Below are positions 7,857 through 13,557 of a stretch of DNA of 40,337 nucleotides, one piece after another. The stretch is taken from assembly GCA_016208875.1 (NCBI GenBank), contig JACQXD010000159.1, forward strand, positions 1 to 40,337, read 5' to 3'. This DNA is from Nitrospirota bacterium. Lineage in GTDB: Bacteria > Nitrospirota > Thermodesulfovibrionia > Thermodesulfovibrionales > UBA1546. Position numbers and translations under genes: made by a program. Position 1 is the first letter of the stretch. Every line of letters starts with the position of its first letter. The notes under the pieces are model-generated. The model was not told the origin of the DNA and did not search any database. It saw only the letters and a program-made list of their open reading frames with translations.

Positions 7857-9683
7857 TTAGTCTCCAACGGTAACTCTCAAAACCTCTTCTATTGTAGTAG
7901 TACCTTCTCTCACCTTTGTCAGACCGCTCATCCTCAACGATTTCATGCCGCCCCGTATAGCAGCCTTTTTTAGATCATCTGTAGATGCGCCTTCGAGCAC
8001 GAGCTTTCTGACCTCATCGTTAATAATCATAACCTCATAAAGGGCTATCCTCCCTTTATACCCGGAATTATTGCAGATCGAACACCCTTTCCCTTTGTAA
8101 CATTTAATAGTCTGTGCTTCTTCTTCCGGGAGACCCAAGTTTATAAGGGTCGGCACCGGGATCTTTTCGACTTCCTTCTCGCACTGCTGGCATATTTTTC
8201 TTGCGAGCCTTTGGGCCATTATCATTATAACAGATGATGACACTAAAAATGGTTCTATACCCATATTTAACAGTCTGCTTATACTGCTGGGGGCGTCGTT
8301 AGTATGCAAAGTGCTGAGGACAAGATGGCCAGTTAAGGCCGCCTTTACCGCGATCTCTGCCGTCTCAAAGTCGCGTATCTCGCCGACAAGGATAATATCG
8401 GGGCTCTGTCGCAAAAATGCCCTCAGCGCAGATGCAAATGTCAGTCCTATCTCCTCTTTCATCTGTACCTGATTTATACCAAGGAAGTTATATTCGATGG
8501 GGTCTTCGGCAGTCATTATATTTATATTGGGCTTGTTGAGATAATTCAATGCAGAGTAAAGGGTCGTTGTCTTCCCGCTTCCGGTAGGTCCTGTTACGAG
8601 TATCATTCCATAGGGTTTATTCAGAGCCTCCATAAATTTCTGGAGCGCCCCTTCTTCAAACCCGAGTTTTGTAAGGTCTACCTGCAATGAAGCTTTATCG
8701 AGAATCCTGAGAACAGTCTTTTCACCGAAAAGCGTGGGTAGAACAGACACACGGAAATCCACCTCTTTTTTCTTGCCGAGTCTCAGCTTTATCCTTCCGT
8801 CCTGCGGGAGCCTTCTCTCTGCGATGTCGAGTTTTGACATAATCTTAAGCCTTGAGGTTATGGAACCTTTGACTTTTAACGGCAGATTCATGGCCAGGGC
8901 AAGGACACCGTCAACCCTGTATCTGACCCTGAGGGATGTCTCATAAGGTTCTATGTGAATATCGCTTGCACCGAGCTTTATTGCGTTTATAAGGATGCCG
9001 CTTACAAGCTTAACAATCGGTTCCTCGACCTCGGTTTTTCCGGTCAGTACATCTTCTTCGGTTATATGTTCGATATCATCGAGTGCGTCTCCGACGACCT
9101 TATCAAATTCATCAACATCAACCGTAGGTCCCTCTTCAAATGACACATCCTCTTCCCCTGCAAGCTCGGTATCCGAAAGGGTATAGTCCTTTGCCTCCAG
9201 TTTGATTCCCTTTGCCGCTGCCTGCGACTGCAGCCTTGCCGCTATAAGTCCCTCGCCCTTACCGCCATAATATGTAGTTATCGTATCTATAAGTGCAGAT
9301 TCTGTTGCGATTACAACCTCAACATTGTATCCTGTCATAAACTTAACATCGTCTATCGCAAAAACGTTGGATGGATCTGCCATAGCAATTGTCAGTGTAG
9401 CTCCCACCCTTGCTACGGGCATTATCATGTATTTCTTTGCCATGTCTGCAGGGATAAGCTTTAATACGGATGGGTCAATCTTATAATCGGAAAGATTCAT
9501 TGCCGATACGCCATATTGCTTACTGAGAAAGGCAGCAAGTTTATCCTCGGTAATATGACCTAATTTAACAAGGTTGGTACCGAGTCTACCGCCGCCCTTT
9601 TTCTGAAGTGCAAGGGCCTCTTTCAATTGTGCCTCGGTAATAACCCCCGAGGCTGTGAGTATCTCGCCTAATTTTACCGCCAC
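7857..9683 (-). CDS. pilB: Type IV pilus assembly ATPase PilB (copy next to pilT)
   Basis: MshEN N-terminus, ERRLPQDG, GPTGSGKTT, GEIRD, CxxC/CxxC zinc motif; GTG start. Confidence 0.95.
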   Translation of the reverse strand: MAVKLGEILTASGVITEAQLKEALALQKKGGGRLGTNLVKLGHITEDKLAAFLSKQYGVSAMNLSDYKIDPSVLKLIPADMAKKYMIMPVARVGATLTIAMADPSNVFAIDDVKFMTGYNVEVVIATESALIDTITTYYGGKGEGLIAARLQSQAAAKGIKLEAKDYTLSDTELAGEEDVSFEEGPTVDVDEFDKVVGDALDDIEHITEEDVLTGKTEVEEPIVKLVSGILINAIKLGASDIHIEPYETSLRVRYRVDGVLALAMNLPLKVKGSITSRLKIMSKLDIAERRLPQDGRIKLRLGKKKEVDFRVSVLPTLFGEKTVLRILDKASLQVDLTKLGFEEGALQKFMEALNKPYGMILVTGPTGSGKTTTLYSALNYLNKPNINIMTAEDPIEYNFLGINQVQMKEEIGLTFASALRAFLRQSPDIILVGEIRDFETAEIAVKAALTGHLVLSTLHTNDAPSSISRLLNMGIEPFLVSSSVIMIMAQRLARKICQQCEKEVEKIPVPTLINLGLPEEEAQTIKCYKGKGCSICNNSGYKGRIALYEVMIINDEVRKLVLEGASTDDLKKAAIRGGMKSLRMSGLTKVREGTTTIEEVLRVTVGD

Positions 9684-9825: not shown

Positions 9826-11664
9826 TCAGTCCCCGAATGTCGCCCTTACTATCTCTTCCACGGATGTAATGCCATCTTTTATTTTCGTTAAACCGCTTAT
9901 CCGCAGCGTCCTCATACCGAGTTTGATGGCATTTCTCTTTATCTCATCGGCAGATGCACCTTCGAGCGTCAGTTCCTTGATCTCTTCTTTCAGCGGCATA
10001 ACCTCATAAATTCCTATTCTTCCTTTGTACCCTGAATTATTACATACAGGGCACCCCTTCCCCTTGTAGCATTTTATGGCTGCTGCCTCATCTTCCGGAA
10101 AGCCCAGCTTTATCAGGGCCGGTACAGGGATCTTTTCCTCTTCCTTACACTGGGGACATATCTTCCTTATAAGTCTCTGGGAAGCAATAAGGATAACCGA
10201 TGCTGCTACAAGAAACGGCTCAATGCCCATATTTAACAACCTGCTTATAGTGCTGGGGGCATCGTTTGTATGAAGGGTACTGAGGACGAGGTGACCTGTT
10301 AAGGCGGCCTTAACCGCGATCTCTGCCGTCTCAAAGTCGCGTATCTCACCGACCATGATAATATCCGGATCTTGCCTAAGAAATGACCTGAGGGCTGCGG
10401 CAAATGTAAGCCCTATATCATCTTTTACAGCAACCTGATTTATACCCGGGAAGTTATATTCGACCGGGTCTTCGGCCGTAGATACATTTACACCGATCTT
10501 ATTCAGATAATTTAATGCAGAATAAAGGGTTGTTGTTTTTCCGCAGCCGGTGGGACCGGTAACCAATATCATTCCATTGGGTCTTTCGAGTGCAATCATA
10601 AAATCTTTTAAAGGTTCCTCATCTATACCCAATTGGGCAAGGTCCACTTTAAGATTACCCTTATCGAGTATCCTCATGTTGGTCCTTTCACCGAAGAGAC
10701 ACGGTACGGTCGAAACCCGGAAGTCTACCTCTTTCTTCTTCCCGAGTTTTAACTTAATTCTTCCATCCTGTGGAAGTCTCCTCTCCGAAATATCGAGACG
10801 TGCCATTATCTTGAGCCTTGACGTTAGGGCACTCTTTATCTTTGCAGGTAGATTCATAATAACGCGGCACTCGCCGTCAATCCTGTATCTTACTCTGACC
10901 GAATTCTCATAGGGCTCGATCTGAACATCACTCGCGCCTGCCTTTATTGCATTTAAAAGAATACCATTGGTGAGTTTTATTATCGGAGCCGCAACCTCTT
11001 TTATCTCCTCTGCATCTTCTCTCTCGTCTACAACCTCAACGTCGCCGAGTGCCTTGCCGACAACCTCATCGAATTCTTCGACGTCAACCGTAGTCCCCTC
11101 TTCACTACCACCTAACATATCTTCTACATTCATATCGTCCGACAAAGTATAGTCCTTTGCCTGCAATATTTCCGTTGCAGCGGACACACTTGTAGCCTGT
11201 GATTGTGCCTGTTGCTTTGCCGCTATAAGTCCCTCGCCCTTACCGCCATAATAAGTAGTTATTGTATTTATGAGTGCCGATTCCGTTGCTATTACAACAT
11301 CAACGTTGTATCCGGTCATAAATTTAACATCATCTACTGCAAAAACATTGGAGGGATCTGCCATAGCGATCGTTAGTGTGGCCCCGACTCTTGCCACGGG
11401 CATTATCATATACTTCTTTGCCATATCGGCGGGAATAAGCTTTGATACGGATGGGTCGATCTTATAATCGGAGAGATTTATCGCCGACATTCCATATTGT
11501 TTGCTGAGAAAAGTGGCAAGTTTATCTTCGGTTATATGTCCTAATTTGACAAGGTTAGTACCGAGCCGGCCGCCCTTCTTTTTCTGGAGATTAAGGGCCT
11601 CTTTTAACTGATCTTCAGTTATTACGCCTGCTGTAATGAGTATCTGGCCTAATTTTACTGCCAT
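9826..11664 (-). CDS. pilB: Second PilB paralog (upstream copy)
   Basis: Same architecture as 7857-9683; Walker A GPTGCGKTT, LRQDPDIIMVGEIRD, zinc motif. Confidence 0.93.
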   Translation of the reverse strand: MAVKLGQILITAGVITEDQLKEALNLQKKKGGRLGTNLVKLGHITEDKLATFLSKQYGMSAINLSDYKIDPSVSKLIPADMAKKYMIMPVARVGATLTIAMADPSNVFAVDDVKFMTGYNVDVVIATESALINTITTYYGGKGEGLIAAKQQAQSQATSVSAATEILQAKDYTLSDDMNVEDMLGGSEEGTTVDVEEFDEVVGKALGDVEVVDEREDAEEIKEVAAPIIKLTNGILLNAIKAGASDVQIEPYENSVRVRYRIDGECRVIMNLPAKIKSALTSRLKIMARLDISERRLPQDGRIKLKLGKKKEVDFRVSTVPCLFGERTNMRILDKGNLKVDLAQLGIDEEPLKDFMIALERPNGMILVTGPTGCGKTTTLYSALNYLNKIGVNVSTAEDPVEYNFPGINQVAVKDDIGLTFAAALRSFLRQDPDIIMVGEIRDFETAEIAVKAALTGHLVLSTLHTNDAPSTISRLLNMGIEPFLVAASVILIASQRLIRKICPQCKEEEKIPVPALIKLGFPEDEAAAIKCYKGKGCPVCNNSGYKGRIGIYEVMPLKEEIKELTLEGASADEIKRNAIKLGMRTLRISGLTKIKDGITSVEEIVRATFGD

Positions 11665-11749
11665 AAATTTAATTTTACACTATATATAAGCATAATGTGA
11701 AGTCAAACACAGGTTTTTTATATCGACAGTATTTAGACTAAAAAGAAAG

Positions 11750-11822
11750 TGGACGGTAGGGGATTCGAACCCCCGACTTCCACGTTGCGAACGTGGCGCT
11801 CTCCCAACTGAGCTAACCGCCC
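11750..11822 (-). tRNA. tRNA-Ala (anticodon CGC), CCA not encoded
   Basis: GGGCGGTTAGCTCAGTTGGGAGAGCGCCACGTTCGCAACGTGGAAGTCGGGGGTTCGAATCCCCTACCGTCCA: cloverleaf, GTTCGAATC T-loop, G3:U70 alanine identity pair. Confidence 0.95.
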
Positions 11823-11828
11823 ATTGTT

Positions 11829-11890
11829 AAATTCCAATAACCAACTCTCAATAACCAAGTTTGGAATTTGGGATTTGGTAATTGGTTATT
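11829..11890. repeat. Inverted pair of 7-bp arrays (CCAATAA / TTGGWAW type)
   Basis: ccaataa-ccaactc-tcaataa-ccaa ... ttggaat-ttgggat-ttggtaa-ttggtta. Confidence 0.7.
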
Positions 11891-12322
11891 CTATTCCTTA
11901 TGGCATTTTATACAAAACGCAGAATTATTAGGAAACCTTAACAGCATTTCATATCCCTTTGTACCATGAGGATCATGACATGTTATACAAGTTATCCTCC
12001 CATCAGGGTCTAAAGGGAACCCTTCCACAGTCACAGAAACTTTTATCCCTACCGCGTGTTCTCCCTTGCCGATCCTTTCTTGATGGCAGGATACACAAAT
12101 ATCTGCTGCCGGTTTACCGAGCAAAGGCTTTTCTTCTCCTTTGTGTGATAAGTGACACATACTACAATTTTTTGCTTCATGTGCCGTAACCTCAGGCGGT
12201 TTGATTTCCGGAACCTCGATCTTTGGAGCTGCACAGGCTATAAAAAGCACCAGTAAAGCTAACCCCCAAAATGCGTTTAGAAAAGTGTAGATGTCTGCAA
12301 TTTTGAATTTTGATTTTTGCAT
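11891..12322 (-). CDS. Small tetraheme c-type cytochrome, probable lipoprotein (doubled-CXXCH type)
   Basis: Four CxxCH motifs (CSMCH, CVSCH, CITCHDPH, CIKCH) and hydrophobic signal ending FIAC. Start moved from 12388 to ATG 12322 because the upstream part overlaps the selenoprotein gene; a TTTTGAA heptamer array spans 12301-12331. Confidence 0.85.
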   Translation of the reverse strand: MQKSKFKIADIYTFLNAFWGLALLVLFIACAAPKIEVPEIKPPEVTAHEAKNCSMCHLSHKGEEKPLLGKPAADICVSCHQERIGKGEHAVGIKVSVTVEGFPLDPDGRITCITCHDPHGTKGYEMLLRFPNNSAFCIKCHKE

Positions 12323-12338
12323 TTTGAATTTTATTAGG

Positions 12339-12506
12339 TTATGCCCTGTTGCACGGACGGAGTGAGATGTCCCTCCATGTATCCTCATCTATCTCGTCGA
12401 TATACTCTTTCAACGGATATATTCTGCCGCATTCCATGCAGCGAAAGGTAACTGCCCTTCAACCGAAATGGAGTTTTAAGTTGCCTTTACACTCTCTACA
12501 TTTCAT
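12339..12506 (-). CDS. Dual-CXXC small selenoprotein (55 aa, Sec at codon 16)
   Basis: Manual translation MKCRECKGNLKLHFG-U-RAVTFRCMECGRIYPLKEYIDEIDEDTWRDISLRPCNRA*; in-frame TGA at 12461..12459 between two CxxC motifs, hairpin just downstream, AAGGA upstream. Resembles the 'dual CXXC motif small (seleno)protein' family. Confidence 0.85.
12426..12442 (-). promoter_or_regulatory. Putative bacterial SECIS hairpin
   Basis: GCUGCAU-GGA-AUGCGGC stem-loop with G-containing apical loop, starting after a 16-nt spacer 3' of the UGA. Confidence 0.65.
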
Positions 12507-12630
12507 CTTGAAATTTTATTCCTTCAAATTTGTACTTAGTTCTGCAATGTATTTAATAATTATACCAATTACAATATATAAAGAGGAACTGCTTGAAATA
12601 AAATTTTCCCCAAAAGAGAATTATTGTTAT

Positions 12631-13557
12631 ATGGTCAAGGATATTGATCCAAAAAATTACCGCCCTGTTCCCTCTCTTCCTTTAGCAATAGTAGCCTCAT
12701 ATCGAGGCATGACTCAAGAGGAGATAGAAAAAGCCCTCTTTAATTATCATGACAATAACATCACCCTGCATGGAAAGAATAACTATGTCCAGAATGACAT
12801 TCATATACACATGGCAAAAGGCGGCAGGATAACCCCTATTTTCATCGGGAACTATGAAAGGTTTGACAGGGAAGTAAACCTCGATCAATTGCTTAAAGAG
12901 TACGGCAGAGAGCAACCGGCGAACGACACAATATTCAAGAATAAGATAGTTTTTGTCGGCGGCAGTTATGATAAAAGAGATTTTTATTATACTCCTCTCG
13001 GCAGGATGTCCGGACTGGAAGTTGTGGCCAATATAACTCAGAGTATCCTGAGCGGTACTCTGATCACCCACATGAGTTTTTTAAAGGCATTCATAATTGA
13101 GCTTATCCTCGGAAGTATAGTTGCGGTTATATTTGTTTTAACCTCGCCCTGCCGGGCATCCATCATCTGTTTTATTGCCCTCATTCCTGCAATAGTATTA
13201 GCCAGTTATCTTGCCTTCTCTACTTCGTACTACTGGTTTGACTTTGTCCCGACTATTGCAGGAGTTATGGTTCATGGTTATATAAGCAAAAAAGAAAAAG
13301 GCAGGGGAAAGGTAATGGAAGGCGAAGGGGTAGCGAACTTTGCAAGGGCATTTCAACATGCTGGTGCAAGGAGTGTTGTTGTGAGCCTCTGGTCAGTGGC
13401 ATCAAATGAGACAGTGGAATTCATGAAGGTCTTTTATGGTTATCTTAAAGCCGGTAAAGGAAAAGCAGAAGCCCTGAGACTTGCCAGAAACGAGATTAAA
13501 GCAAAATACCCCAACCCCTACTTCTGGTCGCCTTTTATATTGCATGGAGAGGGGTAA
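12631..13557 (+). pseudogene. Chimeric remnant: C-terminal CHASE2 part plus TM helices fused to the C-terminal part of a CHAT domain
   Basis: FKNKIVFVGGS...DFYYTPLGRMSGLEVVAN (CHASE2 C-terminus), three TM segments, then GEGVANFARAFQHAGARSVVVSLWSV...PYFWSPFILHG (CHAT C-terminus). CHAT catalytic His and LSAC Cys segments are absent; start uncertain. Confidence 0.65.

Follow-up and report, generated by a model that had tools for sequence, protein, structure and literature searches.

The 40,337-nucleotide (nt) stretch of DNA analysed here, referred to as the window, comprises positions 1 to 40,337 (forward strand) of contig JACQXD010000159.1 in the Nitrospirota bacterium assembly GCA_016208875.1, a groundwater genome of the order Thermodesulfovibrionales. 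Its minus strand carries a small gene interrupted by one in-frame TGA and followed directly by the gene of a tetrahaem c-type cytochrome (Table 1). We consider it very probable that the small gene is a functional member of the selenoprotein family NF041197 in which UGA is read as selenocysteine (Sec), that its zinc-ribbon-like product stands alone, and that the gene order with the cytochrome is local to the lineage. Translation from 12506 to 12339 gives MKCRECKGNLKLHFG-TGA-RAVTFRCMECGRIYPLKEYIDEIDEDTWRDISLRPCNRA-TAA, corresponding to the protein MKCRECKGNLKLHFG-U-RAVTFRCMECGR...RPCNRA. The 55 residues are laid out as M-K-C3-xx-C6-x9-U16-x6-C23-xx-C26, with an acidic stretch (EYIDEIDEDTW) after the second CxxC and then Cys52. 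An earlier note on this DNA, made from the letters alone, had described a 55-codon minus-strand frame of the form CxxC-x9-UGA-x6-CxxC with an acidic tail and a C-terminal Cys, a G-loop hairpin 3' of the UGA behind a 16-nt spacer, and a stop 16 nt before the cytochrome ATG. Each of these features is present, the hairpin with a 7-bp stem and GGA loop, the TAA at 12341-12339 and the ATG at 12322.

As the note had also remarked, the table 11 open reading frame (ORF) list of the window has no entry for this frame, which is split by the TGA. The list does contain a plus-strand ORF at 12349-13557, with a TTG start, antisense to the selenoprotein gene. No Pfam match to it starts before residue 102, and the frame reaches its first ATG at 12631, so that the antisense part is most likely a spurious extension. 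The sequence itself is reproduced by an 816-nt contig from another sample of the same study, which covers 11777-12592 with one difference (position 12200) and none at the TGA; among the DNA runs X2, X3 and X4, the TGA was reached by X2 alone. A sigma-70 consensus scan gave no convincing promoter for the selenoprotein gene.

Table 1 Features at and around the small selenoprotein gene (window coordinates; a dot marks features without a strand).
Feature	Position	Strand	Details
Selenoprotein gene, dual-CXXC small selenoprotein (NF041197)	12339..12506	-	55 codons + TAA; translation with TGA=U
In-frame UGA, codon 16, probably read as selenocysteine	12459..12461	-	TGA at the same column in 35/35 aligned homologues
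Putative SECIS upper stem-loop, GCUGCAU-GGA-AUGCGGC	12426..12442	-	7 bp, GGA loop; overlaps R22-C23-M-E-C26-G27 codons
Possible lower SECIS stem, GAAGGG (12460-12455) / CCUUUC (12448-12443)	12443..12460	-	Minimum-free-energy fold; includes GA of UGA
Tetrahaem c-type cytochrome, 143 residues, lipoprotein-like signal (...LLVLFIAC)	11891..12322	-	4 CxxCH; Paired_CXXCH_1 6.7e-16; TIGR01905
Dispersed AT-rich repeat copy, (TCAAAAT)-like units	12300..12331	.	Covers most of the 16-nt gap and cytochrome codons 1-10
AT-rich divergent intergenic region, presumed promoter region	12507..12630	.	No strong sigma-70 match on the minus strand
tRNA-Ala (CGC), next gene downstream of the cytochrome	11749..11822	-	ARAGORN
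Inverted repeat after the cytochrome stop, 26-nt arms 11836-11861 / 11865-11890	11836..11890	.	73% complementary, 3 nt between arms
Plus-strand gene, CHASE2 C-terminal half + CHAT end, likely true extent	12631..13557	+	First ATG; Pfam

The small selenoprotein matches the NCBIfam family NF041197, "dual CXXC motif small (seleno)protein", with 60.6 bits (cut-off 40, E 1.2e-16) over profile positions 1-52 of 53, and a six-frame search of the genome with the same profile returned 51.2 bits with one TGA in the match. The traits of the family, i.e. small size, two CxxC motifs flanking a central Sec/Cys, and the occurrence of both forms among relatives, are all found here. The product of 12339-12506 is a new member of an already catalogued, uncharacterised family, in agreement with the dual-CXXC assignment made in the note. 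The passages on this family in a 2026 review (PMC13188914) equate it with 'hypothetical protein OS_HP3', which was predicted in 2007 (Zhang and Gladyshev, in the relevant passage of PMC1976440), and list it again as 'hypothetical protein DW', a name that comes from deep-Sep in 2025 (PMC12013277, likewise as given in its relevant passage). Full-text literature searches on the family returned catalogue entries only, with no functional or experimental study found.

The protein of the window is like other NF041197 members in its size, its C-x2-C ... U/C ... C-x2-C spacing, the Sec/Cys column, a predicted selenocysteine insertion sequence (SECIS) after the UGA and its occurrence in Sec-using anaerobes. 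Its clade differs in detail. The motif listed in the review's entry (PMC13188914) is RxU or GxU, and most Cys forms found here read R-x-C, whereas the clade of the window has hydrophobic-Gly-U-Arg/Lys, with Gly at -1 in 25 of 35 homologues and a basic residue at +1 in all 35 (Arg 25, Lys 10). The clade does not have the N-terminal extension of ~15 residues, and it ends in NR[AV] where other members end in DR[ILV]. NF041197 comprises Sec and Cys forms, whereas all 51 copies in the related genomes described below are Sec forms.

Conservation was assessed in 61 genomes, comprising the genome itself (G000) and 60 relatives from the same family and order. NF041197 matches were found in 51 of these (44 over the cut-off), all with exactly one in-frame TGA that lies at the same column in every match, which places the frame beyond chance. 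The layout CxxC-x9-TGA-x6-CxxC is seen in 30/30 loci returned from the related genomes. Residues C3, C6, U16, C23, C26, Y35, D40 and W44 are invariant in 35 aligned homologues, 29 of which also have the C-terminal Cys. The alignments leave out L052 (the same protein as L031), L057 and L059 (misfits to the motif pattern, L057 being cut by a contig end), and L060 and L061, weak Burkholderiales matches with E 3e-4.

No candidate came from a word-index protein search with the U-to-C protein, presumably a consequence of gene callers ending the frame at the TGA. With a profile built from the 35 sequences, 128 hits at E<=1e-3 were obtained among 1.84 billion representatives. Sixty-nine of these are full-length (at most 120 residues and fitting the motif spacing), and their Sec column holds Cys in 63, Trp in five and Arg in one. 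Among the other 59 hits are 21 fragments of 32-38 residues that cover only the part behind the TGA (three were inspected), the remainder being longer multi-zinc-finger proteins or proteins of different spacing. All five positions, i.e. the four Cys and the Sec/Cys, are invariant across the wide alignment. One Cys form, from Maridesulfovibrio, carries the NCBI name of family NF041197. In the Maridesulfovibrio pair L070 and L071, the same flanks (...LYTHRE and RGVFLRCGSCG) enclose Cys in the former and TGA in the latter at the Sec column. Among 301 genomes sampled from the phylum of this genus, 76 have a match; of the 56 matches that exceed the cut-off, 18 lack a stop and 38 contain one TGA. The note had asked for Cys/Sec homologues aligned at position 16, and had held that Trp or Arg there would tell against selenocysteine; such homologues exist, as the Maridesulfovibrio pair illustrates, and Cys prevails in the column.

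Bacterial Sec insertion, as the note had stated, calls for a SECIS just 3' of the UGA. In the window, a 16-nt spacer (12458-12443) separates the TGA from the upper stem, the distance from UGA to loop is 23 nt, and the fold from the UGA onwards has an energy of -15.6 kcal/mol. The 66-nt fold taken alone is unremarkable (z = -1.33), and the case for a SECIS rests for that reason on comparison with relatives. We applied the constraints of the bacterial SECIS (bSECIS) consensus model described in section 5 of PMC13188914; as coded here from that section, they accommodate 31/35 homologues, the copy of the window included. Across the 35 sequences, 93.9% of cells in the upper stem are paired, versus 18.4-51.0% with the 3' arm slid by 1-3 columns, and none of 500 shuffles attained either the pairing or the covariation score observed. 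Covariation is seen at the closing pair (UA 17, GC 4, CG 3, AU 1, UG 1, unpaired 9).

Since the codons of R-C-x-x-C-G supply the stem, two controls were used, namely synonymous codon choice and the Cys forms. The codons of Cys23 and Cys26 are TGC in 35/35 homologues, compared with 19/35 at Cys6 and 20/34 at other Cys. Arg22 is encoded by CGC in 28/29 cases versus 13/181 Arg codons elsewhere in the same genes, and Gly27 by GGC in 31/32 versus 35/71. In a second set of loci (in which L072 is the same locus as L055), 15 Sec forms have on average 6.4/7 pairs in register and a mean hairpin energy of -5.4 kcal/mol, compared with 3.7/7 pairs and -1.8 kcal/mol for 17 Cys forms. The sole Cys form with 7/7 pairs is the Maridesulfovibrio copy whose twin retains the TGA. 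The outer pairs of Sec forms vary on both sides, as in GCUGCAG/CUGCAGC, UUUGCAG/CUGCAAA and CCUGCAA/UUGCGGG. Across these loci the hairpin tracks the TGA, and not the CxxC coding.

The predicted element resembles the bacterial SECIS of the E. coli fdhF type, as described in that section of PMC13188914, in being a stem-loop within the coding sequence 3' of the UGA, with a 7-bp stem, a 3-nt loop starting with GG, 23 nt between UGA and loop and a fold energy below -7.5 kcal/mol. It is unlike that type in that the putative stem consists almost wholly of the Cys codons of the second CxxC and their neighbours, such that protein and RNA constraints would coincide. By its fit to the model, its conservation and its association with the TGA, the hairpin strongly supports the view that the gene truly encodes Sec, by means of a SECIS placed immediately behind the UGA.

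The organism decodes Sec, as the note had supposed, and has the full machinery to do so. Profile matches to selB (377.7 bits), selA (614.7 bits) and selD (352.5 bits) all exceed the curated cut-offs, and the tRNA-Sec model finds, at 69.1 bits and also above its cut-off, a tRNA whose anticodon is UCA. Neither selA (453 positions) nor selB (580) of this genome has in-frame stops, hence TGA does not serve generally as a sense codon. The selD product is a selenoprotein too, with one in-frame TGA in its N-terminal ...SCAGUAAK... (contig C91:2188-3114, minus strand, locus L010), which is the location of the known Sec/Cys residue of SelD. Among the related genomes selA is present in 58/61, the three without it being 66-89% complete. 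In codon 16 of the small gene, the UGA would be recoded by the standard bacterial route, with the SECIS hairpin recruiting SelB that carries Sec-tRNA(Sec). The gene hence adds a selenoprotein that standard ORF calling overlooks, and through it a groundwater member of the Thermodesulfovibrionales is seen to read UGA as selenocysteine.

A second unusual tRNA was observed in this genome. It is a 95-nt tRNA with the Cys anticodon GCA (contig C244:4743-4835, minus strand; locus L015 1501-1595) scoring 58.5 bits on the tRNA-Sec model (gathering 47). On one side it adjoins a match to NF040786, 'selenium metabolism-associated LysR family transcriptional regulator' (295.9 bits, cut-off 250), and on the other a gene distantly like split-Soret cytochrome c (145.9 bits, cut-off 400). 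A class of selC* tRNA-Cys is reported from Thermodesulfovibrio and Nitrospirae in the relevant passages of Mukai et al. (PMC5389517), and the 95-nt tRNA fits the class as it is described there.

An AlphaFold2 model of the product (predicted local distance difference test score 75.5) has strands at residues 9-14, 19-23 and 29-31, a turn containing residue 16, and a helix at 41-48. The best Protein Data Bank (PDB) neighbours of the model are zinc ribbons of RNA polymerase subunits, with root-mean-square deviations of 1.1-1.5 A over 31-33 columns. An Atlas look-up with a Cys-form homologue yielded nothing beyond the family and zinc ribbons of a generic kind, and the weak Pfam/NCBIfam matches of the small selenoprotein are to Zn_ribbon_6, Trm112p, the HypA zinc domain and S27e. 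No signal peptide is seen in the sequence, suggesting that the product is cytoplasmic.

The product would adopt a zinc-ribbon-like fold in which a single metal ion, most likely zinc, is coordinated by the two CxxC knuckles. Sec would sit in the turn of the beta-hairpin between the knuckles, beside the conserved Arg/Lys. Distant from the knuckles, it may form an exposed reactive selenol, acting as a redox-active or ligand-transfer residue, while the acidic helix EYxDEIDExxW and the conserved ...NR[AV] tail could provide a docking surface for a partner protein. Our reading of the function is that a redox-active Sec is displayed at the surface of a scaffold of zinc-ribbon type. The modelled arrangement of CxxC knuckles flanking a beta-hairpin is shared with the zinc ribbons of Rpb9/C11, Trm112, topoisomerase I and ZifS of Thermus thermophilus (PDB 8yoz), whereas these contain no Sec or conserved Cys in the hairpin turn and no acidic C-terminal helix.

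Several observations weigh against the interpretation of the locus as a functional selenoprotein gene with a zinc-ribbon-like product. The possible lower stem is poorly kept, with 64.3% of cells paired across homologues, and 4/35 hairpins fail a strict reading of the bSECIS constraints. In the upper stem, which is partly dictated by the C-x-x-C-G coding, five of the seven pairs are nearly invariant, such that the in-order covariation rests on one pair. Trp or Arg occupies the Sec column in 6/69 full-length homologues; these residues could be true substitutions or stem from translation of TGA with another code table. About 5% of the sampled words were found in the six RNA runs, none of which covers the gene at high identity or the junction with the cytochrome gene; the matches of contigs from RNA run X18 were confined to the tRNA gene, the AT-rich repeat and 68 nt of the small gene, the last with 12 differences and probably from a relative. 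On the structural side, the Foldseek matches of the model are not significant (E>=0.26). Cys52 is absent in 6/35 homologues, making a fixed selenenyl-sulfide pair between Sec and this residue unlikely.

The metal site could also be of another kind. Two CxxC pairs are the textbook ligand set of rubredoxin, which is likewise small, and the organisms concerned are anaerobes rich in iron-sulfur and haem proteins. Together with the invariance of the four Cys and the Sec/Cys, this would suit a rubredoxin-like iron centre, or Sec as a fifth ligand of a metal or cluster, in a carrier of electrons, metal or chalcogen. We regard such a site as improbable. Sec is placed by the model in the hairpin turn distal to the knuckles, from where contact with the same metal is improbable. 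Pfam gave no match to rubredoxin, the weak family matches and nearest structures (the latter at the Foldseek E values given above) being zinc ribbons. The small selenoprotein further differs from rubredoxin in its spacing and in the extra invariant Sec/Cys.

The note had also placed the selenoprotein gene at the head of a putative operon with the tetrahaem cytochrome lipoprotein and suggested a functional link; the small protein would then serve, for example, as redox partner or maturation factor. In the window, the two genes are co-directional and separated by 16 nt; a consensus terminator scan found nothing between them, and co-transcription in this genome is possible. The same order also occurs in some relatives. 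The cytochrome lies directly downstream and co-directional in L022 (the locus of the window), L035, L049 and L051, the gene being partly masked in L031, and cytochrome orthologues of 51-61% identity adjoin the small gene in G004, G008, G010 and G012, the complete set of four genomes from genus g5. Genus g7, represented by G006, has a 52%-identical cytochrome 2.5 kb downstream, in the co-directional order small gene, CcsA-like, ResB-like, cytochrome, the two intervening genes belonging to cytochrome c biogenesis.

A conserved partnership, in contrast, is not supported by the wider comparison that the note had called for. Adjacency is found in 5/51 genomes with the selenoprotein gene (6 counting G006), and all six belong to one taxonomic family, within which genus g2 has the selenoprotein gene with no adjacent cytochrome. 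In 25 of the 51 genomes no cytochrome homologue was found at E<=1e-8; elsewhere the best homologue (38-48% identity) is on another contig or distant, and three genomes have the cytochrome and lack the small selenoprotein gene. Other genes downstream are as frequent in the order, with CxxCxxCC-like proteins in 6/30 loci and ribosomal protein S20 in 3/30, and NYN_YacP is the first or second downstream gene in 5/30. Direct contact of the two products is also unlikely, because only the cytochrome appears to have a signal peptide (of lipoprotein type), which would place them in different compartments. The proximity of the two genes is a lineage-local gene order and not a conserved partnership, and an operon in which the selenoprotein works with the cytochrome is unlikely.

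The tight spacing may itself have another origin. Both the gap and the start codon of the cytochrome fall within a dispersed repeat of ~32 nt containing ATGCAAAA, of which the genome has 10 copies (at most 3 mismatches) versus none for a control pattern; for this reason the 16-nt spacing may be a by-product of the repeat. In seven other copies that were inspected, the frame from the ATG of the repeat stops within 3-52 codons, and these copies look intergenic. With the cytochrome only a local neighbour, the 16-nt gap is a poor guide to function. Further copies of the repeat were seen on contigs C85, C134, C230, C11, C24, C35, C41, C147 and C192 (L103-L109), one of which shortly precedes a gene with a product that resembles EF-Tu. 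The repeat also attracts a pile-up of metagenome contigs, with a depth spike at 12278-12345.

A composite proposal appears more doubtful still, namely that in one family-level lineage, made up of this genus, g5 and g7, the small cytoplasmic selenoprotein has been drawn into a cytochrome c module, most fully developed in G006, where it would supply reductant from the cytoplasm to thiol reduction in System II haem attachment or sense redox state to control that process. In its broader form, the proposal sees the nearly universal, always Sec-containing copy of the order as a new type of housekeeping redox relay on a zinc ribbon. Scarcely credible is the notion that the TGA is a real stop or encodes another residue such as Trp or Gly, the frame then representing a pseudogene, a pair of tiny ORFs or an ORF that arose by chance: table 11 calling does split the frame, the 21 short database entries match the post-TGA part only (showing how gene callers treat it) and Trp stands at the column in five homologues, but this is already contradicted by the comparative data, with amino-acid conservation on both sides of the TGA in 35/35 homologues, the TGA at one column in 51/51 genome matches, Cys dominant among the database homologues, a SECIS that tracks the TGA, and complete Sec machinery with selA and selB free of in-frame TGA and selA widespread in the related genomes. 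For the family, catalogued since 2007, the stand-alone selenoprotein of the Thermodesulfovibrionales offers a clean case for experiment, being present in 51/61 genomes, always as the Sec form, with a putative SECIS in the codons of the second CxxC and decay of the hairpin in Cys forms.

The neighbourhoods of 62 loci reveal no family-wide partner gene, only subgroup patterns. These comprise the cytochrome, a CxxCxxCC-like gene with NYN_YacP, S20, a ComF-like phosphoribosyltransferase upstream in the '...IIYD' Cys subgroup, and an HI0933-like flavoprotein by the '...CNRI' subgroup; in 32 loci beyond the 30 of the order, from Desulfobacterota and two others, the contexts vary again. The CxxCxxCC (PF03692)-like Cys-rich proteins, of 180-207 residues, are found at L024, L027, L037, L044, L047 and L048 in four taxonomic families, a broader spread than that of the cytochrome pairing, and a YacP-like NYN gene comes next in L024, L027 and L037. 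Their Pfam matches range from E 1.9e-5 to 0.019, with only one above the gathering score. In Desulfobacterota, the Cys-form ...IIYD subgroup lies directly downstream of a gene for a phosphoribosyltransferase domain protein of ~185 residues at eight loci (L080-L083, L085, L086, L090 and L091), often with hflX nearby; one member of that cluster is labelled 'predicted amidophosphoribosyltransferase' in its source.

Type IV pilus genes (T2SSE/T2SSF, PilM, secretin) were seen near the small gene in 8/62 loci from two phyla; a link to the selenoprotein was considered and set aside, the arrangement being treated as retained synteny. In the window, downstream of the tRNA, there are tandem PilB/MshE-type secretion ATPases (MshEN + T2SSE) of 608 and 612 residues, at 7860-9683 and 9829-11664 on the minus strand. 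The inverted repeat behind the cytochrome was not called a terminator by the consensus scan, and it is possible that it marks the end of the transcription unit. The 308-residue product of the divergent plus-strand gene matches CHASE2 positions 128-255 of 257 and CHAT positions 200-288 of 289, both being partial. The more usual domain order is CHAT followed by CHASE2, the reverse of that seen here, and the gene may be rearranged or a remnant.

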